Source: Escherichia phage MRostami-2023e. Taken from it: a stretch of 64,000 nt of DNA. The position numbers and the translations under genes are program-made. The DNA is taken from the sequence record OQ031495; one strand, written 5' to 3'. Within the stretch, counting starts at the first letter, position 1, and each line of letters starts with the position of its first letter. Shown here piece after piece: positions 1 through 8,571 of this stretch. The notes beneath the pieces are model-generated. The model had not been told where the DNA came from. It saw nothing but the letters and a program-made list of their open reading frames with translations, and did not search any database.

Positions 1-377
1 CTTTAGCCGTAGCTAAAGCTGAACTTGACAGAATGATCGGACGTAAATGCAACGGTACAATTACCCTTGATGAGGCCGAAAAGCTATTTAATGAAGACGT
101 TGATAAAGCCGTTCGCGGAATCTTGGGTAATGCTAAACTTAAACCGGTATATGATTCTTTAGATGCGGTTCGTCGTTGTGCATTGGTCAATATGGTCTTC
201 CAAATGGGTGTAGCAGGCGTCGCCGGTTTTACTAATTCTCTTCGTATGCTTCAACAGAAACGTTGGGATGAAGCGGCAGTAAATCTAGCCCAATCTAAAT
301 GGTATCGTCAGACACCTAATCGCGCGAAACGCGTAATCTCAACATTTAAAACAGGAACTTGGAAAGCGTATATATGA
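1..377 (+). CDS. e: Endolysin (T4-type lysozyme), 5'-partial; coding frame enters from the window edge
   Basis: Translation ...[29 protein letters not shown]...[40 protein letters not shown]...TGTWKAYI matches the C-terminal two-thirds of T4 lysozyme; stop at 375-377. Confidence 0.9.
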
Positions 378-655
378 AAACATATAGTGAATTTTTATCA
401 GAATCTATTCTTAACGAAGCTACTGACACATTTGCAACTAAGCTAGGTGCAGCTTTGGTTGAAGCCGAAAGTCTACTAGCACGTATTTCTGAACTTGCTA
501 GTAAGATAGATACTCGCAAATTTGAACGTACTAGCGATATCGCTAAGCTTGAAGCCTTGTTACGTATGTGCAATAAACCGGAAGAAATCGCTAAGAACGG
601 CTCGCTGATGAAACAACGTCTTGAAAAATATATTTCAGGCGCTTCAGAAAAATAG
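374..655 (+). CDS. Internal-protein-like head protein with N-terminal capsid-targeting sequence
   Basis: Starts [10 protein letters not shown], like the T4 IP capsid-targeting sequence MKTYQEFIAE; ATG overlaps the e stop (ATGA). Confidence 0.55.
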
Positions 656-713
656 TGTTTACTTCCTCCAAGGGTTTTGATACTATACATTCATCAACTA
701 CTTGGAGGAAATT

Positions 714-1250
714 ATGACTCGTATCAATTTAACACTTGTTTCTGAACTGACCGACCAACATCTTATGGCTGAGTATCGTGAATTACCACGCGTATTTGGT
801 GCAGTCCGTAAACATGTTCAAAACGGTAAACGTGTAAAGGATTTTAAAATCTCTCCAACATTTATCTTAGGCACAGGTCACGTAACATTCTTTTACGACA
901 AACTTGAATTTTTACGTTTAAGACAAATCGAGCTAATCGCTGAATGTTTGAAACGTGGTTTCAAAATCAAGGACACGACAGTCCAGGATATTTCCGACAT
1001 CCCTGCCGAATTTCGTAATAATTATGTCCCGTCCGAAGCGTCCATTGCGATAAGTCAAGCACGCTTAGATGAAAAAATTGCTCAACGTCCGACTTGGTAC
1101 AAATACTATGGTAAATCAATTTACCAAGGAAAAATGAAAATGTATCAAGAATTTATCATTGAAGCAGATGCCAAAGGTCCTAAAGTAGATGTTGACGATA
1201 TTGGATACGATTTTAACAACTTCGGAATTATTTCTGGCGGTAAAGCTTAA
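714..1250 (+). CDS. denV: Endonuclease V (pyrimidine-dimer DNA glycosylase/AP lyase) with about 40-aa C-terminal extension
   Basis: [35 protein letters not shown]...[10 protein letters not shown] is near-identical to T4 DenV; SD GGAGGA at 704-709; ORF continues about 40 codons past the T4 terminus. Confidence 0.85.
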
Positions 1251-1313
1251 ATTGTTTACGCTTAAGTATTAATATGGTATAATTACTCTATCAAAACAAA
1301 CAAGGAAACAAAA

Positions 1314-1631
1314 ATGAAAACATATAAAGAATTTATCGCCGAATCTGCTGCAGGACAACGTGTAGAAGGTGGTTATATCTGGATTGAACAAGTTGAGCCG
1401 CCAAGTCGCACTTCTACAGGTAAATGGAAAATCACTGTTGATGGTCCTGGTGGTAAACGTAGGACTCTTAAAGAAATTAATGGGTACTATGAAGAAGCTC
1501 TTTCTGACGCGGGTACTTATATGATGCAAATCATGATTAAAAACCCAGAAAATCGTTTTGCGGCTAGAGTTTTCCGCCGTATTGGAAATAAGCTTTATGA
1601 TGCATATTCTAAAAACTTCCCTAAAGAATAA
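1314..1631 (+). CDS. Internal protein (IPII/IPIII-like) with capsid-targeting sequence
   Basis: Starts MKTYKEFIAE; 105 aa; sits at the T4 ipII/ipIII position next to denV. Confidence 0.6.
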   Translation: MKTYKEFIAESAAGQRVEGGYIWIEQVEPPSRTSTGKWKITVDGPGGKRRTLKEINGYYEEALSDAGTYMMQIMIKNPENRFAARVFRRIGNKLYDAYSKNFPKE

Positions 1632-1647
1632 AAATTAAAGGAAACAT

Positions 1648-1679
1648 ATGAAAACATATCAAGAATTTATTACTGAAGC
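1648..1679 (+). CDS. Internal-protein-like gene, 5' end only; body lost in masked N-run
   Basis: Starts MKTYQEFITE with SD AAAGGAAA upstream; sequence becomes N at 1680. Confidence 0.4.
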
Positions 1680-2283
1680 NNNNNNNNNNNNNNNNNNNNN
1701 NNNNNNNNNNNNNNNNNNNNNNNNNNNNNNNNNNNNNNNNNNNNNNNNNNNNNNNNNNNNNNNNNNNNNNNNNNNNNNNNNNNNNNNNNNNNNNNNNNNN
1801 NNNNNNNNNNNNNNNNNNNNNNNNNNNNNNNNNNNNNNNNNNNNNNNNNNNNNNNNNNNNNNNNNNNNNNNNNNNNNNNNNNNNNNNNNNNNNNNNNNNN
1901 NNNNNNNNNNNNNNNNNNNNNNNNNNNNNNNNNNNNNNNNNNNNNNNNNNNNNNNNNNNNNNNNNNNNNNNNNNNNNNNNNNNNNNNNNNNNNNNNNNNN
2001 NNNNNNNNNNNNNNNNNNNNNNNNNNNNNNNNNNNNNNNNNNNNNNNNNNNNNNNNNNNNNNNNNNNNNNNNNNNNNNNNNNNNNNNNNNNNNNNNNNNN
2101 NNNNNNNNNNNNNNNNNNNTATTTACATTCAAATAACATGGGAACAACCTGGACCTCATGATTCTATGAGGGATTCCCGCCAACCTGTAATAAGGTCGAG
2201 CCCAAGTGCGGTAATGGGTTTACATAGCGAGTCGAAGGACCTAACATGTGCCACGGAATGGCCCAAACCTTAAGAGAAATAAT

Positions 2284-2823
2284 ATGAGAACATTTTTAAC
2301 TGGACCTTATCTATCCCTGATGAATGCTTTTACACACCATTCTGATGCTAGAGTAGAAGAAATTTGTAAGAACGGATATGTCCCACCATTTGAAGACGTA
2401 CTCAAGCAGTACTGTACACTTCGTTTAGACGGCGGCCGACAATCAGGTAAATCAATTGCTGTGACTAACTTTGCTGCTAATTGGCTGTATGATGGTGGAA
2501 CGGTTATTGTTCTTTCTAATACTTCAGCTTATGCTAAAATTTCTGCTGGCAACATTGAAAAAGAATTTTCTCGTTATTCTAGCGACGATATTCGATTCCG
2601 TTTATTTACTGATTCTGTTCGTAGTTTTATTGGCAATGAAGGTTCTAAATTCCGTGGATTAACGCTTTCTCGTATTCTGTATATAATTGACGAGCCTATT
2701 AAAGCTCCTGATATGGATAAGATTTACAATGTCCATATTAAAACAGTACAGTACTGCTGTAAAAGCAAATATTGCATCGGCGGTAATGCTCGTCCTCAAT
2801 TTTTTGTGATTGGAATGCAATGA
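2284..2823 (+). CDS. Hypothetical protein with Walker-A-like motif
   Basis: 179-aa ORF; GGRQSGKS resembles a P-loop; track ORF begins at GTG 2248, first ATG at 2284. Confidence 0.45.
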   Translation: MRTFLTGPYLSLMNAFTHHSDARVEEICKNGYVPPFEDVLKQYCTLRLDGGRQSGKSIAVTNFAANWLYDGGTVIVLSNTSAYAKISAGNIEKEFSRYSSDDIRFRLFTDSVRSFIGNEGSKFRGLTLSRILYIIDEPIKAPDMDKIYNVHIKTVQYCCKSKYCIGGNARPQFFVIGMQ

Positions 2824-3128
2824 TGACCACTATTGAAGTTTTTGAATATTGTTATAACAGTCCAGTATGCAATAAAAGGGCCCTTGTAGAAAATTACGAG
2901 ATTTACCATTTTAAACCTAAACGATATCGTTTGACTAAAGGTCCGTTCGCAGGGCAGCAGGTTCTTTGTACTGCTCCTAATGCACGACTGATGACTAGTA
3001 TTCCACATTTCAAAATGGAATTTATTGATGGGCCATTTAAGGGATTAATCACTCAAAGTTTAATGGCGTTTAATTCCGTCCCATTTTTGATTAAAGAAAA
3101 AACTTGGATAAATTTATTTTCTAATTGA
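2820..3128 (+). CDS. Hypothetical protein
   Basis: 102-aa ORF, start overlaps upstream stop (ATGA). Confidence 0.45.
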   Translation: MMTTIEVFEYCYNSPVCNKRALVENYEIYHFKPKRYRLTKGPFAGQQVLCTAPNARLMTSIPHFKMEFIDGPFKGLITQSLMAFNSVPFLIKEKTWINLFSN

Positions 3129-3134
3129 GGTTAT

Positions 3135-3497
3135 ATGAAAGCATATCAAATTCTTGAAGGCACACACAAAGGCACTATTTATTTTGAAGACGGTACTCAA
3201 GCCCGGATTATTGTCTCTAAGACTTTTAAAGAAGACGCTATTGTAGACCCGGAAATTTTCTACGGTTTGCATGCCCGTGAAATTGAAATTGAACATCAAC
3301 CTAAAGTTAAAATTGAAGGTGGTCAACATCTGAACGTTAACGTTCTGCGTCGTGAAACTCTGGAAGATGCAGTTAAGCATCCAGAAAAATATCCGCAGTT
3401 GACCATCCGTGTATCCGGTTATGCAGTTCGCTTTAACTCTCTGACTCCGGAACAGCAGCGCGACGTTATCGCTCGTACCTTTACTGAGAGTCTATAA
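3135..3497 (+). CDS. Autonomous glycyl-radical cofactor (GrcA/YfiD-like; T4 Y06I-type)
   Basis: C-terminal [60 protein letters not shown] carries the RVSGY glycyl-radical motif; SD GAGG upstream. Confidence 0.85.
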
Positions 3498-3721
3498 TGG
3501 CTAAATTGATTATAGAAGGGTCTGAAGATGTTTTAAAATGTTTTGCCGCCTGGTTTAGTTGCTCAGGCGAGCAATCATTCATTGAAGCATTTAGAATGGG
3601 TGATATTACTGGAAACTATCCGGCAACTGATATCACTGTACGTGGATATGGTATTAATGAGCCTATCCAATTGGTCGAATATGACCTTGCCACCGATGAG
3701 GAAATTCCTTATGTCGATTGA
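3497..3721 (+). CDS. Hypothetical protein
   Basis: 74-aa ORF, start overlaps previous stop. Confidence 0.45.
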   Translation: MAKLIIEGSEDVLKCFAAWFSCSGEQSFIEAFRMGDITGNYPATDITVRGYGINEPIQLVEYDLATDEEIPYVD

Positions 3722-3977
3722 AGATATTAAAGGCTACAAGCCACATACCGACGATAAAATCGGTAAAGTGAACGCTATTAAAGATGCAGAAGTCCGTCTT
3801 GGATTGTTGTTTGATGCTCTGATTGAAGAAGCATATATCTTGAAAGAAAATGAAACAGAGCAACAAACCAAAGAAGATATGGATGCAGTACAGGCTCTTA
3901 AGTATGCTAAGCAACATCTAAAAGAAGCCAGCATGTGGGCCTGTCGTGCAGTATTTCGACCTGAGGAAAAATACTAA
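3711..3977 (+). CDS. Hypothetical protein
   Basis: 88-aa ORF from internal ATG (MSIEDIKGY...) preceded by GAGGAAA; the longer track ORF from 3543 overlaps the upstream gene. Confidence 0.4.
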   Translation: MSIEDIKGYKPHTDDKIGKVNAIKDAEVRLGLLFDALIEEAYILKENETEQQTKEDMDAVQALKYAKQHLKEASMWACRAVFRPEEKY

Positions 3978-4252
3978 TGGCTNNNNNNNNNNNNNNNNNN
4001 NNNNNNNNNNNNNNNNNNNNNNNNNNNNNNNNNNNNNNNNNNNNNNNNNNNNNNNNNNNNNNNNNNNNNNNNNNNNNNNNNNNNNNNNNNNNNNNNNNNN
4101 NNNNNNNNNNNNNNNNNNNNNNNNNNNNNNNNNNNNNNNNNNNNNNNNNNNNNNNNNNNNNNNNNNNNNNNNNNNNNNNNNNNNATCAAAGAGTAGTTTA
4201 CTTCTCCTCTAGTTGTGTTACTATAGACCTGTCAACTAGAGGAGAAATCAAA

Positions 4253-4711
4253 ATGACTATCAATTCAGACGTTTTTATCCGCCGTAATAAACTCCGTCGA
4301 ATCTTTGAAACGGAGTTCCGCAAAATAAATGCCAGTATAAAAGATGCTGCAAAGTCTCTTGGACTACCAGGCTTTCATATCAAGTATTCTCAACATCTCT
4401 TAGATCGTGCCATCCAGAGAGAAATAGATGAGAATTACGTTTTTGAATTATTTCGTAAAGTAAAAAATCATGTTAAAGAAGTTGCAGAATTTTTATCAAT
4501 GCCGGCACGTCCAGATGTTGATGAAGATTTTGTCGAAGGCGTCGAATATCGCCCAGGCCGTTTAGAAATAACTGATGGAAATCTTTGGTTAGGACTTACA
4601 GTCTGTCGCGAAAATCCAGCATTCAAAATGAAGACTCTTCAATGCAGAATGGCTATTATTAACAGTAAACGACTACCAGGAAAAGCTTCTAAAGCCGTGA
4701 TTAAAATCTAG
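4253..4711 (+). CDS. regB: Sequence-specific endoribonuclease RegB
   Basis: MTINSDVFIRRNKLRR...HIKYSQHLLDRAIQREIDE...GRLEITDGNLWLG...CRMAIINSKRLPGKASKAVIK closely matches T4 RegB; SD GAGGAGA at 4240-4246. Confidence 0.9.
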   Translation: MTINSDVFIRRNKLRRIFETEFRKINASIKDAAKSLGLPGFHIKYSQHLLDRAIQREIDENYVFELFRKVKNHVKEVAEFLSMPARPDVDEDFVEGVEYRPGRLEITDGNLWLGLTVCRENPAFKMKTLQCRMAIINSKRLPGKASKAVIKI

Positions 4712-4719
4712 AGGTAAAC

Positions 4720-5262
4720 ATGAGAAAAGCACTACTCGCTGGTCTATTTGCTCTTTCATTATCAGCACATAGCTCCGAGCATACTTTTAGTAATGTCCAA
4801 CTCGATAACTTGAATTATGCTTATCAGTTTGGGGAACAGTTTTCTAAGGATGGAAAATTTAAAACGCATGAAAATATGCATAAGAAAGGACTTGGATACA
4901 TAATGGCCGCAATACTATGGCAAGAATCATCTGCCGGTATTAATCTTAAAGATAAGAAAGGTCACCATGCGTATGGAATGTTCCAAAATTATCTACCAAC
5001 AATGAGGGCAAGAATTAACCAGCTTGGTTACAATATGACTGATGCCCAAATTAAGAAAATGCTATCTAAGCGGTCTAATTCAGCCAGATGGGCTTATATA
5101 GAATTTTCTTATTGGTTAAATATACATAACGGGGATATAAGAAAAGCTATATCCTCATATAATGCGGGATGGAAGACAAGTGCTGGAAGTAAATATGCTT
5201 CTGAAGTCCTAGAAAAGGCTAATTACCTTAAATCAAATAAACTACTGGAAATAAAAGAATGA
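4720..5262 (+). CDS. Secreted lytic-transglycosylase-like protein
   Basis: N-terminal signal peptide (MRKALLAGLFALSLSAHS); WQESSAG...AYGMFQ...YNAGW resembles SLT-domain catalytic motifs. Confidence 0.5.
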   Translation: MRKALLAGLFALSLSAHSSEHTFSNVQLDNLNYAYQFGEQFSKDGKFKTHENMHKKGLGYIMAAILWQESSAGINLKDKKGHHAYGMFQNYLPTMRARINQLGYNMTDAQIKKMLSKRSNSARWAYIEFSYWLNIHNGDIRKAISSYNAGWKTSAGSKYASEVLEKANYLKSNKLLEIKE

Positions 5263-5606
5263 CCAAAATGTTGGCTTTAATAGTTGGCTTGGTTTCATTT
5301 AACGCTCTTGCTAATACTACATATACTGATGTAACGGAGTATACAAACAGAACGGCGTCTGATTATTGTGGTAAAAGTCAAGAGTGTAAAGTAGATTTTT
5401 CACAAAAATTGTTATATGCGTATAAAGACGGAGAAAAAGATGGGGCGTCTAGTAGGTTCAAGGCGTCTACCTTAATTAAAAGATACTATAAAAAATGGCA
5501 AATATTAGAATGCTCGGTGGCGGAACCTAAAGATAAGGCAGCATGCAATTCTATGGTGGACCGTCTAGTTGACTCTTATAATAGAGGACTTGCAGCAAGT
5601 GATTAA
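5259..5606 (+). CDS. Secreted hypothetical protein
   Basis: Signal peptide MTKMLALIVGLVSFNALA; Cys-containing 115-aa ORF. Confidence 0.45.
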   Translation: MTKMLALIVGLVSFNALANTTYTDVTEYTNRTASDYCGKSQECKVDFSQKLLYAYKDGEKDGASSRFKASTLIKRYYKKWQILECSVAEPKDKAACNSMVDRLVDSYNRGLAASD

Positions 5607-6057
5607 AAACTATATCAAGGGCGATATTGTCGCCCTGTTTTCTAAAGGTAATAATATTGCTCATGGGTGTAATTGTTTTCATACAATGGGCGCCGGTGTA
5701 GCAGGCCAATTAGCAAAGGCTTATCCAAAAATTTTAGAAGCCGATAAACTTCAAACTGCATATGGAGACGAGTCTAAACTCGGGTCTTATTCGGTTTATG
5801 AAAAATATTTTAAGACCCATAAAGCTTATTGCTTTAATCTTTATACGCAGTTTGAGCCTGGACCTAATTTTGAGTACTCTGCTTTAATGAATTGTATAAT
5901 AGAATTAAATGAATTCGGAAAGAATAAGATAACAAAGCCTGTAATTTATATGCCAAGAATTGGTGCCGGTATTGGTGGTGGAAACTGGGATGTCATCGAA
6001 GAGATTTTAGATACGTATTCCACTAAACTAGAAATTGTGATTGTTGATTGGGAACCN
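5599..6057 (+). CDS. Macro-domain protein (TARG1/Poa1p-like), 3' end lost in masked run
   Basis: IAHGCNCFHTMGAGVAGQLAKAYP and MPRIGAGIGGGNWDV match macro-domain ADP-ribose-binding loops; start uncertain (GTG 5599 or TTG 5590). Confidence 0.55.
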
Positions 6058-6480
6058 NNNNNNNNNNNNNNNNNNNNNNNNNNNNNNNNNNNNNNNNNNN
6101 NNNNNNNNNNNNNNNNNNNNNNNNNNNNNNNNNNNNNNNNNNNNNNNNNNNNNNNNNNNNNNNNNNNNNNNNNNNNNNNNNNNNNNNNNNNNNNNNNNNN
6201 NNNNNNNNNNNNNNNNNNNNNNNNNNNNNNNNNNNNNNNNNNNNNNNNNNNNNNNNNNNNNNNNNNNNNNNNNNNNNNNNNNNNNNNNNNNNNNNNNNNN
6301 NNNNNNNNNNNNNNNNNNATGGACTGTTTTTTTTACTTTATGTAACGATGAAATGATATGTGATTTTGATTATTGGTGTTATTGCTATTGATACAATAAA
6401 GGATGTACAAATCATACAGGTGAAGGTTTCTATTCCGGGTTTCAACCGTATCCAGACTTTGTNNNNNNNNGTGAACCTAA

Positions 6481-6663
6481 ATGAAATTAACTAAAGAAGA
6501 GAAAGCTAAACTGTTCGAACTTATCCATGACCTATTGGACGAGCAAGCAGCCACCAATGCGTACGATGAATATGCTCCTTTAACAGATGAAGAATATCAA
6601 GCATTGATGGAATCATTTGACAGGAAAGAACAAGAACTCATTGACTACGTGAATTCACTATAA
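6481..6663 (+). CDS. Hypothetical acidic protein
   Basis: 60-aa ORF. Confidence 0.45.
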   Translation: MKLTKEEKAKLFELIHDLLDEQAATNAYDEYAPLTDEEYQALMESFDRKEQELIDYVNSL

Positions 6664-6672
6664 GGGACTCTT

Positions 6673-7254
6673 ATGGCTAGTTTAATTTTTACATATGCCG
6701 CTATGAATGCTGGTAAGTCTGCTTCATTACTTACTGCCGCACATAACTATAAAGAACGTGGCATGGGTGTATTAGTTCTTAAACCGGCTATTGATACTCG
6801 CGATTCAAAAGGTGAAATAGTCTCTCGTATTGGTATTCGTCAGGATGCCAATATAATTACAAAAGACATGGATATCTTTGAATTCTATAAATGGGCTGCA
6901 GCACAAAAGGATATTCACTGTGTATTTGTTGACGAAGCTCAGTTCTTAACTACTGAAAAGGTGTATCAACTTAGTCGTATTGTTGACGTATACAATGTGC
7001 CGGTAATGGCATATGGACTACGAACAGATTTTAAAGGTAATCTATTTGAAGGTTCTCAAGCATTAATGGCTATTGCCGATAAGCTTGTTGAACTTAAAGG
7101 TGTCTGTCATTGTGGTAAAAAGGCCACAATGGTAGCTAGAGTCACGGAAGACGGACTTCCAATTACAGATGGCAGTCAAATTGAAATTGGTGATACCGAT
7201 AGATATGTGTCATTATGCCGGAAGCATTGGAATGATTTGACAGGGTTGTTATAA
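6673..7254 (+). CDS. tk: Thymidine kinase
   Basis: MASLIFTYAAMNAGKSASLL...VFVDEAQF...CHCGKKA... near-identical to T4 Tk; P-loop and zinc-ribbon cysteines present. Confidence 0.92.
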   Translation: MASLIFTYAAMNAGKSASLLTAAHNYKERGMGVLVLKPAIDTRDSKGEIVSRIGIRQDANIITKDMDIFEFYKWAAAQKDIHCVFVDEAQFLTTEKVYQLSRIVDVYNVPVMAYGLRTDFKGNLFEGSQALMAIADKLVELKGVCHCGKKATMVARVTEDGLPITDGSQIEIGDTDRYVSLCRKHWNDLTGLL

Positions 7255-7257
7255 ATA
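7250..7257 (+). promoter_or_regulatory. Candidate T4-type late promoter (TATAAATA)
   Basis: Exact TATAAATA octamer about 25 nt upstream of the 7282 start. Confidence 0.4.
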
Positions 7258-7281
7258 CTAATATCTAACCAAGAGGTATAT

Positions 7282-7494
7282 ATGCAGCAATTAAACGAAA
7301 GACAACTTCGTAATCTTACTGTAACCCAATTGGATGAAATCCGAAGAGAATTAGGACATTCTATTTCTCATTTAAACGAGGATATCCGTCAAACTGGTTC
7401 TAAAGCTGATTATACACGCAAGCGCAAGCTGGAAAAATACCTCACAGATGTTAAGGCCGTCCAAAGGCGAAAAATAAATACTGGCCAAAATTAA
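7282..7494 (+). CDS. Hypothetical protein
   Basis: 70-aa ORF with SD GAGG upstream. Confidence 0.5.
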
Positions 7495-7506
7495 CAGGAG
7501 GCCTAT

Positions 7507-7809
7507 ATGGCCTTAAGAGCGATAGCTGTCATGGCGATGCTGGGGTTTTTTGCAGCAACAACTCCTAACGTTGGTACTGCATATGTTGACCCATATTTTG
7601 ATAACTTTATGGAATCAGGGATTAAAAACGTATATACTTTGTTTGAAATTCAAAATGTCGAGAATTCTGAAAAATTCTATAAGTATATGGCAAAGCATTA
7701 CAAAAATAGCCCCTGTGATGATGCATTTGAATGTCATGAACAAGGCATAAAAACTGCCAGACAATTTGCCGAGTTCATGAAAATAAAATTAGAGCCTACA
7801 TCTATCTAA
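7507..7809 (+). CDS. Secreted hypothetical protein
   Basis: Signal-peptide-like N-terminus MALRAIAVMAMLGFFAA; SD AGGAGG upstream. Confidence 0.5.
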   Translation: MALRAIAVMAMLGFFAATTPNVGTAYVDPYFDNFMESGIKNVYTLFEIQNVENSEKFYKYMAKHYKNSPCDDAFECHEQGIKTARQFAEFMKIKLEPTSI

Positions 7810-7815
7810 TTTACT

Positions 7816-7844
7816 AGCCCCTTCCTTATGGTTGGGGCTTTTTG
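7816..7844 (+). terminator. Rho-independent terminator
   Basis: AGCCCC / GGGGCT stem with 12-nt loop followed by TTTTT. Confidence 0.6.
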
Positions 7845-7854
7845 GCATCTATCA

Positions 7855-7905
7855 GTTTACTTCTCCTCAGGTTGTGTTATAGTAAACCTTACTTACTAGA
7901 GGAGA
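7855..7905 (+). promoter_or_regulatory. Early promoter / stem-loop cassette
   Basis: GTTTAC 7855-7860, 17-bp spacer, TATAGT 7878-7883; inverted repeat TCTCCTC / GAGGAGA places the SD in the 3' arm. Confidence 0.55.
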
Positions 7906-7910
7906 ACGTT

Positions 7911-8090
7911 ATGACACGTAAAGAAAAAATTTCTAAGTTAATGTTTTTGATTGAAGAGTACGCTAATGCGGTATCTGATTGGGAAAATGCTCATGGTTGC
8001 GAAGATGGAGACATCGACATTAACAGAGCTATGAAAAAGATGGCTGACGCCCACACCGAATTGCAAATGTATGTTAACGAGATTATGTGA
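7911..8090 (+). CDS. Hypothetical protein
   Basis: 59-aa ORF downstream of the cassette. Confidence 0.45.
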   Translation: MTRKEKISKLMFLIEEYANAVSDWENAHGCEDGDIDINRAMKKMADAHTELQMYVNEIM

Positions 8091-8097
8091 GGATATT

Positions 8098-8190
8098 ATG
8101 CTTTACGATTATACTGGAAAATCTGAAGACGGTGTACTTGAACTTTTACCTGAAAGCGCTGAAGATGATGATATGGTGGTGATGTTTTGT
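8098..8190 (+). CDS. Hypothetical protein, 5' part only (runs into masked run)
   Basis: MLYDYTGKSEDGVLELLPESAEDDDMVVMFC then N-run. Confidence 0.3.
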
Positions 8191-8571
8191 NNNNNNNNNN
8201 NNNNNNNNNNNNNNNNNNNNNNNNNNNNNNNNNNNNNNNNNNNNNNNNNNNNNNNNNNNNNNNNNNNNNNNNNNNNNNNNNNNNNNNNNNNNNNNNNNNN
8301 NNNNNNNNNNNNNNNNNNNNNNNNNNNNNNNNNNNNNNNNNNNNNNNNNNNNNNNNNNNNNNNNNNNNNNNNNNNNNNNNNNNNNNNNNNNNNNNNNNNN
8401 NNNNNNNNNNNNNNNNNNNNNNNNNNNNNNNNNNNNNNNNNNNNNNNNNNNNNNNNNNNNNNNNNNNNNNNNNNNNNNNNNNNNNNNNNNNNNNNNNNNN
8501 NNNNNNNNNNNNNNNNNNNNNNNNNNNNNNCAAGTTGAAGAACTTTATCGACATTTAAAACACAATCGGTA

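Follow-up and report, generated by a model that had tools for sequence, protein, structure and literature searches.

A Mosigvirus locus with four putative capsid-targeting internal-protein genes and a probable recent cassette swap at the end of the targeting leader

The DNA analyzed here is a 64,000-nt stretch of Escherichia phage MRostami-2023e (OQ031495), referred to as the window. Its closest matches were Mosigvirus genomes, with ~96% identity overall, and the flanks of the locus described below were 100% identical to phage vB_EQ1. On this sequence comparison the window is assigned to a Mosigvirus, an RB69/JS09-like T-even phage and a near-clone of vB_EQ1. The gene order is syntenic with T4 nudE-e...vs.8-vs.7-vs.6. 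Within it, the order e – IP – denV – IP – IP – IP – vs.8 (IP, internal protein) was found, which is the usual Mosigvirus layout, and the variable locus ends on the right at the conserved vs.8 homologue (Table 1). An initial annotation had noticed at least three genes with a capsid-targeting sequence (CTS) flanking denV. These ORFs (IP-A, IP-C and IP-D) are present as described, the third being cut by a run of Ns, and a fourth, IP-B38, had been missed. It was also correctly seen that a single IP gene, IP-A, lies between e and denV; its start codon overlaps the TGA stop of e (ATGA at 374-377). The late-promoter sequence TATAAATA was not found in 1-3600, so early promoters, or a start upstream of the window, must account for late expression. 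A search of 1-5000 against Rfam gave no match. An Acb2 anti-CBASS homologue is located 2 kb downstream of the locus. The prohead protease gp21 and the scaffold protein gp22 are encoded by core genes of all T4-related phages (PMC9026906), and these head genes sit outside the 64-kb window.

Table 1. Features of the e-denV-vs.8 locus in the window.
Feature	Position	Strand	Evidence
Gene e, 3' part (T4-type lysozyme)	1..377	+	ORF 33-377; relatives annotate lysozyme/endolysin; 100% to vB_EQ1
IP-A, 93-aa CTS protein, leader then S	374..655	+	phrog_3499 'internal head protein', E = 5e-46
denV (endonuclease V, pyrimidine-dimer glycosylase), 137 codons	714..1124	+	PF03013, E = 4e-14; phrog_1183, E = 4e-62
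Lost denV stop codon, CAA (TAA in relatives)	1125..1127	+	comparison with relatives
IP-B38, fourth CTS ORF, 38 aa, leader then A	1134..1250	+	phrog_35655, E = 2e-30
Junction of 144-bp in-frame deletion in IP-B	1176..1184	+	GGTCCTAAA direct repeat flanks the deleted segment in vB_EQ1
Promoter-like site, sigma-70/T4-early type (TTTACG-17-TATAAT, with TG), upstream of IP-C	1255..1283	+	consensus match only
IP-C (Ip10), 105-aa CTS protein	1314..1631	+	phrog_3966, E = 6e-34
Putative recombination crossover, end of CTS leader (codons 9-10)	1340..1343	+	diagnostic bases in five-way DNA alignment; identity by segment
IP-D: leader MKTYQEFITE/A (1648-1679), then 440-nt N-run (1680-2119)	1648..2119	+	spacer and leader comparison
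Putative scar left by an older second denV copy: its 3' end (TATTTACATT, TAA now CAA) and downstream bases	2120..2136	+	matches denV 3' ends of L089 and L022
vs.8 homologue	2284..2823	+	phrog_1488, E = 3e-78; aligned with T4 vs.8; 100% to vB_EQ1

The leader pattern occurred four times in the window, always on the + strand and at the starts of IP-A, IP-B38, IP-C and IP-D. On the DNA level, ATGAAAAYRTATNNNGAATTTNTNNNNGAA gave exactly 4 matches in 64 kb compared to 0.00 expected from 100 shuffles. All four leaders have the form MKTY-x-EF-(L/I)-x-E and retain Tyr4, Phe7, Leu/Ile8 and Glu10, of which the first two are the targeting residues and the last two the residues for processing by gp21 (PMC9026906). 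The gp21 cleavage motif (L/I)-x-E at residues 8-10 is followed by a small residue in 4/4 leaders (LSE/S, IIE/A, IAE/S and ITE/A, with the slash at the predicted cleavage site), and IP-C begins with MKTYKEFIAE/S. Together with the PHROG assignment of IP-A and the near identity of IP-C to a known Ip10, the retained leader residues support the assignment of the four ORFs as putative T4-type CTS internal-protein genes, as the initial annotation had proposed for three of them. The family trait is a small basic mature protein; the calculated pI was 9.6 for the mature part of IP-C (95 aa), 7.8 for that of IP-A (83 aa) and 4.3 for IP-B38, IP-D being masked. In RB69 leaders are damaged, since IP-A reads MKTYMNFYQN and the last IP has E10A. 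Literature searches on Mosigvirus IPs turned up neither virion proteomics nor data on N-terminal processing.

Internal proteins are diverse and have the CTS as their sole common part (PMC3012670, PMC9026906). The three ORFs that can be read have mutually unrelated mature parts, which fall into separate BLASTP clusters and into the separate PHROGs 3499, 35655 and 3966. The earlier statement that unrelated sequence follows the leader therefore holds for the readable mature parts, while the ORF at 1648 can be read in its leader only. Among 36 Tevenvirinae loci from IMG/VR, 0-5 CTS ORFs were present per locus, often on both sides of denV, and the one conserved leader was joined to mature domains of at least 15 unrelated families; members of the ipII and ipIII families occurred on either side of denV. 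The description of the locus as expanded thus singles out nothing special, as the same order of e, four IP genes, denV and vs.8 is found in RB69 (ORF127c/ORF125c/ORF124c/ORF123c), JS09, ST0, moskry, pEK20 and JK36. RB69 has had this layout since 2003, and the GenBank labels are those of internal head proteins (Ip10, IpIV, ipII, ipIII). Several CTS genes around denV are already known: this is textbook T-even biology and the default layout of the genus. The IP-A gene is also present in RB69 (ORF127c), ST0, moskry, pEK20 and vB_EQ1. Compared with RB69-type Mosigvirus, IP-A and IP-B are the same genes with 94-99% DNA identity, but in the window the IP-B allele is short and denV has lost its stop codon, a change otherwise seen only in vB_EQ1.

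In T4, the leader MKTYQEFIAE/A has the same critical residues, the neighborhood is the same (nudE-e-...-denV-vs.8-vs.7-vs.6) and the small proteins likewise stand behind strong ribosome-binding sites. However, in T4 ipIII and ipII both lie between e and denV (nudE-e-ipIII-ipII-denV-vs.8, with ipI elsewhere) and none follows denV, whereas the window has one before and three after it. The difference from the T4 order had been seen the wrong way round, as it lies in the IP genes after denV and not in the one before it. In addition, the readable mature domains of the window are not homologous to IPI, IPII or IPIII.

IP-C was identical to Ip10 of PP01 at 104/105 residues and 70% identical to Ip10 of Shigella phage SP18, in line with its Ip10 family (phrog_3966), and exactly this protein is encoded in Tequatrovirus-type genomes. 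On the DNA level the locus is a mosaic. Segments 1-1184, 1185-1301 and 2120-3982 each matched vB_EQ1 at 100%, the first two being separated in vB_EQ1 by a further 144 nt. For 1401-1679, identity to Tequatrovirus-type genomes was 99-100%, but the flanks of those genomes reach only 77-82% identity with the window. The markers upstream of 1340-1343 were of vB_EQ1 type and the sequence downstream was of Tequatrovirus type. Judged from these alignments, a very recent cassette swap took place exactly at the targeting tag, and the mature IP-C is the Tequatrovirus Ip10 allele on a Mosigvirus backbone. What it replaces is either the allele resident in Mosigvirus (91-92% identical) or the ipIII-like gene of vB_EQ1. 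In PP01, EC121, Sf25, SH7 and other Tequatrovirus genomes the ip10-ipIV pair shares this segment including the 17-nt spacer and the next leader, but stands directly after e or after a divergent denV (~68% DNA identity), whereas in the window the backbone is that of Mosigvirus and the IpIV position is masked.

In a deep HMMER search of 1.84 billion representatives, IP-C had one true relative (P0004). The other five matches were multi-repeat proteins (RTX, filamin repeats) and were treated as noise, as were marginal filamin- and CsgH-like signals (E = 0.09-0.35) in Pfam and PDB. IP-A, IP-B and IP-C had no significant match when searched by sequence against PDB, and an AlphaFold2 model of IP-C, made with three homologues, had a mean pLDDT of 49.7, too poor for a fold comparison.

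The 17-nt spacer and the IP-D leader matched the Tequatrovirus Ip10-IpIV junction at 78/79 positions; the mask covers the rest of IP-D and the crossover on the right. It had been suggested that the masked run could hide more cargo, but by comparison with relatives it has room for about one gene. Candidates are an IpIV-like DUF7412 (PF24183) protein, 157 aa in relatives, or an ipII orthologue (phrog_7857) with a denV remnant as in pEK20/JS09. ST0 and pEK20 carry the ipII orthologue, which in the window may or may not be under the mask. The spacing fits the ipII type, with TATTTAC 472 nt from the IP-D start in the window vs 473 in pEK20, and also the IpIV type, with ATGGGAAC at 490 vs 487 nt, the N-run length being nominal and possibly different from the true one, as at the other N-runs of the window the corresponding stretch of vB_EQ1 is not of the same length. 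An in-frame ORF at 1648-2136 was considered as proof of a 162-aa IP-D and dropped, because vB_EQ1 lacks such a gene and yet is identical at 2120-2136; for the same identity, 2120-2283 was dropped as a possible intron or RNA remnant.

The segment 2120-2136 is instead interpreted as the scar of an older denV copy, and this would be why the IP genes appear 'downstream' of denV. pEK20 retains GGCAAAAATATTTACATT and a 99-nt 5' fragment of denV, and in T4 the same block of downstream bases stands directly after the denV stop. In the denV gene of the window at 714-1124, loss of the stop codon leads to in-frame read-through to 1250, giving a predicted product of 178 aa, 41 residues longer, in which DenV is fused to the 38-aa IP-B38. 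An 81-nt stretch around this site matched 194 phage records, of which vB_EQ1 was the only identical one, and the exact DNA pattern did not occur in IMG/VR, JGI metagenomes or GTDB genomes. Look-ups with the exact proteins gave no match for the DenV fusion or for IP-A, and for vs.8 only JK36, whose locus has the usual layout. Since vB_EQ1 and the window belong to one lineage, differ in structure and yet share the stop loss, this change is at least tolerated. That the DenV-(QGK)-CTS-peptide fusion docks on the scaffolding core via its internal CTS, is packaged, released by gp21 at IIE/A and injected with the DNA is extremely improbable; if it were true, the virion would come pre-loaded with an enzyme for the repair of UV damage in phage genomes. 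The rare DenV read-through fusion in the window is of minor value.

IP-B38 is preceded by an AAGGA ribosome-binding site of its own and is a truncated allele of ORF125c, the 86-aa IP of RB69; this gene is long in ST0, moskry, RB69 and vB_EQ1 and short in pEK20. With 28 aa after processing and an acidic pI, unlike the basic IPs, it may be a dead remnant, as the deletion takes out 48/76 mature IP-B residues. More broadly, the locus could be partly decaying, with IP-B38, and perhaps the DenV extension too, as non-functional debris of recombination and deletion and not cargo. The stop loss upstream, which shows relaxed constraint at the gene boundary, and the further scars (the pEK20 denV fragment, 2120-2136 in the window and the damaged RB69 leaders) agree with this. 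However, the deletion is in frame and leaves the leader, the ribosome-binding site and the C-terminal 23 residues intact, and the short allele has its own PHROG (35655) and is kept in several independent isolates (single-piece matches in pEK20, TU01 and UGJNEcP1/2), so that decay is a serious but doubtful reading. Sequencing error or chimeric assembly of a mixed lysate, as a source of the stop loss and/or the mosaic, is very unlikely. The stop loss is indeed a single base seen only in the window and the near-identical vB_EQ1, and the N-runs fall exactly where the window differs from vB_EQ1, which could reflect assembly problems. But CAA is present in two assemblies of different local structure (long/short IP-B; ipIII/Ip10), which argues against one copied record, the sequence runs without a break on either side of the 30-nt patch that contains the crossover, and such mosaics are the documented norm at this locus.

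That IPs are anti-restriction cargo is the standing hypothesis of the field (PMC3012670). By analogy with IPI* of T4, which acts on GmrSD, each IP of the window might inhibit a modification-dependent (type IV) restriction enzyme and the locus be an unusually expanded arsenal. IPI* is a proven precedent that reviews extend to diverse IPs (PMC3012670, PMC9026906), a target exists in the GmrSD-family enzyme BrxU, which cuts Mosigvirus DNA with its arabosylated 5-hydroxycytosine (PMC13390438), and the Acb2 homologue marks an accessory, counter-defence neighborhood. On the other hand, an IPI homologue of RB69 is reported at another locus, gp155 (PMC13326640), and of the T4 proteins, IPII and IPIII have no known anti-restriction role, IPIII affecting head assembly (PMC9026906). 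T4 IPI remained a singleton when clustered by BLASTP together with all CTS proteins of the locus, the readable IPs had no significant Pfam or PDB family match (in Pfam none above the cut-off), and the locus is not expanded relative to the genus. The initial annotation had taken over the IPI* role by analogy from T4, and none of the proteins here clusters with IPI. The Ip10 cassette is moreover 99-100% identical in Tequatrovirus, with glucosyl-hmC DNA, and in the Mosigvirus of the window, with arabinosyl DNA, which argues against a modification-specific target and hints that Ip10 acts on no one particular DNA modification. Taken together, an anti-restriction arsenal is unlikely. To our knowledge, only T4 IPI* has a demonstrated target.

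The best overall explanation, which is very probably correct, is that of an e-denV-vs.8 IP cassette locus of Mosigvirus with four CTS ORFs and a cassette swap at the leader. By extension from T4 biochemistry, the 10-residue leader would bind the prohead scaffolding core, with Tyr4 and Phe7 as key residues, gp21 would cleave after Glu10 of (L/I)-x-E, and the mature IPs would remain in the head with the DNA and be injected together with it into the next host cell. That the injected cargo counters host defenses is the leading hypothesis. The ribosome-binding site and the 30-nt leader form a conserved patch before every cassette that is used as a site of homologous recombination, so that mature domains are exchanged as units. 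In the window, a vB_EQ1-type ipIII-like cassette was probably replaced by a Tequatrovirus Ip10 cassette, possibly including IpIV, through a crossover in the last leader codons. The IP-B deletion between repeats, the TAA to CAA stop loss and the older-denV scar are side events in the same hotspot.

The locus type itself is ordinary, being annotated already in hundreds of genomes, and as stated it raises no new question; the functions of IPs beyond IPI* are made no more testable by the window than by RB69-like isolates in culture collections. Repoila et al. (1994, as cited in PMC3012670) reportedly described modular exchange of IP genes among T-even phages, in polymorphic regions where short conserved sequences border the variable genes. 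The exchange in the window is conceptually the same, but appears very recent, and its leader crossover is resolved to the base. What it offers is a base-resolved natural swap of a cargo domain at the end of the leader, between genera with different DNA modifications, which supports the plug-and-play view of the CTS.

The capsid targeting sequence (CTS) leaders that the initial annotation had placed at 374, 1314 and 1648 are real, and a fourth, which it had missed, was identified at 1134. Written as a degenerate DNA pattern, the leader matches exactly 4 times in 64 kb, with 0.00 matches expected by chance, and Tyr4, Phe7, Leu/Ile8 and Glu10 are present in 4/4 leaders. Mutagenesis of T4 IPIII showed that positions 4 and 7 govern head targeting and positions 8 and 10 processing by the prohead protease gp21 (PMC9026906). 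The genes were thus rightly recognized as CTS internal-protein (IP) genes, and the observation of the locus is correct and far beyond chance. Past the leader, the 3 readable proteins are mutually unrelated and fall in separate BLASTP clusters and separate PHROGs (3499 'internal head protein', 35655 and 3966). Window 1-4000 carries genes on the + strand only.

Genes of window 1-4000 and N-runs of the window
Feature	Position	Strand	Remark
e (lysozyme), 3' part	ends 377	+	
93-aa ORF (IP-A)	374-655	+	ATG overlaps e stop (ATGA)
denV	starts 714	+	
38-aa ORF (IP-B)	1134-1250	+	
105-aa ORF (IP-C)	1314-1631	+	
ORF from 1648 (IP-D)	from 1648	+	enters N-run 1680-2119
vs.8 homologue (T4)	2284-2823	+	
vs.7 homologue (T4)	2820-3128	+	
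vs.6/GrcA homologue (T4)	3135-3497	+	
vs.4/Acb2 homologue (T4)	3711-3977	+	88 aa
N-run	1680-2119		
N-run	3983-4184		
N-run	6057-6318		with 6463-6470
N-run	8191-8530		

The layout e - IP - denV - IP - IP - IP - vs.8 is common to RB69 (sequenced 2003), ST0, moskry, pEK20 and JK36, where RefSeq labels most of the IPs 'internal head protein' or 'internal virion protein', so the locus cannot be called expanded. The order in T4 is nudE - e - ipIII - ipII - denV - vs.8. An IP gene between e and denV, previously taken as a departure from T4, is therefore a T4-like trait, and it is the IP genes downstream of denV that distinguish the window from T4. Among 36 Tevenvirinae loci around denV from IMG/VR, 0-5 CTS ORFs were found per locus, often flanking denV on both sides. 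Across these loci the mature domains form no fewer than 15 unrelated families, and members of the ipII family, like those of the ipIII family, can lie on either side of denV, depending on the genome. In the locus of RB69, two leaders are damaged (1775-2056 and 3200-3529): that of IP-A is MKTYMNFYQNLSLNE, which resembles a compensated frameshift across the CTS, and the last IP starts with MKTYQEFIAAV, in which Glu10 is changed to Ala and the gp21 site is lost. Packaging or processing in this type phage may therefore involve fewer IPs than in its relatives.

The best full-length matches were Mosigvirus genomes (AV110, moskry, ST0, JS09, pEK20 and RB69, ~96% identity). Escherichia phage vB_EQ1 (PQ516281) shares 100.0% identity with the window over 1-1184, 1185-1301, 2120-3982, 4186-6056 and 6473-8190, indicating that the window is a near-clone of vB_EQ1 that differs at few spots. 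The N-runs coincide with spots where the two differ in content or length, and they hide variable, possibly mobile, segments whose lengths are not to be assumed equal to those of relatives. Window 6057-6472 holds ~416 nt extra compared with vB_EQ1, and 340 N in the window correspond to 72 nt in vB_EQ1.

Compared with vB_EQ1, IP-B carries a clean 144-bp in-frame deletion between GGTCCTAAA repeats, which shortens it from 86 to 38 aa. The second change is the replacement of an ipIII-like gene (192 aa). Window 1401-1679 matches Tequatrovirus-type genomes such as EC121 and PP01 at 99/100, 100/100 and 78/79 positions. The flanks of these genomes show just 77-82% identity to the window, and resident Mosigvirus alleles of the IP-C gene reach just 91-92%. 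IP-C matches the PP01 protein annotated Ip10 at 104/105 residues, and many Tequatrovirus-type assemblies encode the 105-aa IP-C sequence exactly. In a five-way alignment, vB_EQ1-specific bases were found at 1322, 1337 and 1340 and Tequatrovirus-specific bases from 1343 on, which places the crossover within leader codons 9-10. The mature domain was thus swapped exactly at the gp21 cleavage site.

ST0, moskry, pEK20, RB69 and two IMG/VR genomes end denV with TAA; in the window and vB_EQ1 this position (1125-1127) is CAA. The surrounding 81 nt are matched by 194 phage records, of which only vB_EQ1 is identical, and searches of IMG/VR, JGI metagenomes and GTDB genomes gave no match to the stop-loss pattern. 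Through the CAA, DenV gains QGK and the 38-aa IP-B remnant, giving 178 aa; the fused ORF of vB_EQ1 has 226 aa and is annotated endonuclease V. Since an AAGGA ribosome-binding site is still present in front of the short ORF, both the fusion and the separate 38-aa IP-B are likely made. We regard the stop loss as a mutation that is tolerated, in a gene that is not essential; loading of DenV into heads by the internal CTS is an unsupported possibility.

Directly past the N-run, 2120-2136 reads TATTTACATTCAAATAA, identical in vB_EQ1. It matches the denV 3' ends of two other denV-bearing loci, L089 and L022 (...AATATTTACATT-TAA), but with CAA in place of the stop, after which it continues with bases found downstream of denV in L022. 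More of a second denV is retained in pEK20 and JS09 (promoter, 99 nt of 5' coding sequence and GGCAAAAATATTTACATT). The scar at 2120-2136 of the window is followed by the conserved block GGGAACAACCTGGACC..., which in T4 begins directly past the denV stop. Together, these scars, on which several genomes agree, suggest that an older denV stood immediately before vs.8, as in T4, and was later eroded, the functional denV now lying further upstream. The decayed copy, at 5015-5113 of the pEK20 locus and in JS09 (hits H32/H33), lies downstream of an ipII orthologue, comprises promoter, 32 codons and 3' end, and is named 'endonuclease V N-glysidase' in GenBank. In seven Tequatrovirus-type loci (e.g., EC121, PP01) denV is absent and e is immediately followed by ip10-ipIV-vs.8; four close relatives carry denV between e and ip10. 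denV itself is a dispensable, mobile member of the hotspot.

Behind the IP cassettes and ahead of vs.8 lies a G+C-rich block of ~125 nt (2137-2265, +) whose DNA sequence is conserved across T4, Tequatrovirus and Mosigvirus. Its T4 counterpart immediately follows the denV stop and carries the annotation of an N-terminal vs.8 extension. In the window the block does not read in frame into vs.8, and a separate 35-aa ORF (2166-2273) is present. RNAalifold on 12 variants predicted a nested hairpin, GGGAA..(CCTCATG/CATGAGG)..TTCCC, with two compensatory pairs, and no Rfam family matched the block, which may be a structured RNA or processing element.

The suggestion that the N-run at 1680-2119 could hide more cargo holds for about one gene, for which there is room; the spacing in relatives speaks against a hidden arsenal. 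In the Tequatrovirus donors, ip10 is followed by the same 17-nt spacer and a 157-aa CTS protein, IpIV (Pfam DUF7412), and the last slot of JS09 and pEK20 is taken by a T4 ipII orthologue and a denV fragment. Landmark distances match both options within 1-3 nt (IP-D start to TATTTAC, 472 nt in the window and 473 in pEK20; to ATGGGAAC, 490 nt and 487 in the IpIV type), with a mask length that may be inexact, as the other N-runs differ in length from their vB_EQ1 counterparts. Donor-type sequence continues to 1679 in the imported tract, which somewhat favors an IpIV-like gene; ipII is a considerably less probable occupant.

From the leader and T4 biochemistry, these IPs would be targeted to the head and processed by gp21; no virion proteomics for Mosigvirus IPs was found in the literature. 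An anti-restriction role has been proven for one IP only, IPI*. BLASTP clustering gave no likeness to IPI* among the mature domains, and Pfam and PDB searches with the IPs returned nothing significant. An IPI homologue of RB69 has been reported elsewhere in its genome (PMC13326640). The AF2 model of IP-C was poor (mean pLDDT 50), and an HMMER scan of 1.84 billion representatives gave one true relative, which indicates that the family is confined to T-even phages. The arabinosylated DNA of Mosigvirus is cut by BrxU, a GmrSD-family enzyme (PMC13390438). The Ip10 allele is 99-100% identical between phages whose DNA is glucosylated and phages whose DNA is arabinosylated. This identity speaks for a target, if one exists, that is independent of the DNA modification type. 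The vs.4 homologue is homologous to Acb2/Tad1, an anti-CBASS cyclic-nucleotide sponge (PF24729, E = 4e-18), so the IP cassettes have a known counter-defense gene 2 kb downstream.

T-even IPs have already been reviewed as a diverse set with the CTS as sole shared part (PMC3012670, PMC9026906). The genus is known to carry this locus, which is already annotated; what the leader crossover, the stop-loss fusion and the denV scar add is small and at the strain level.
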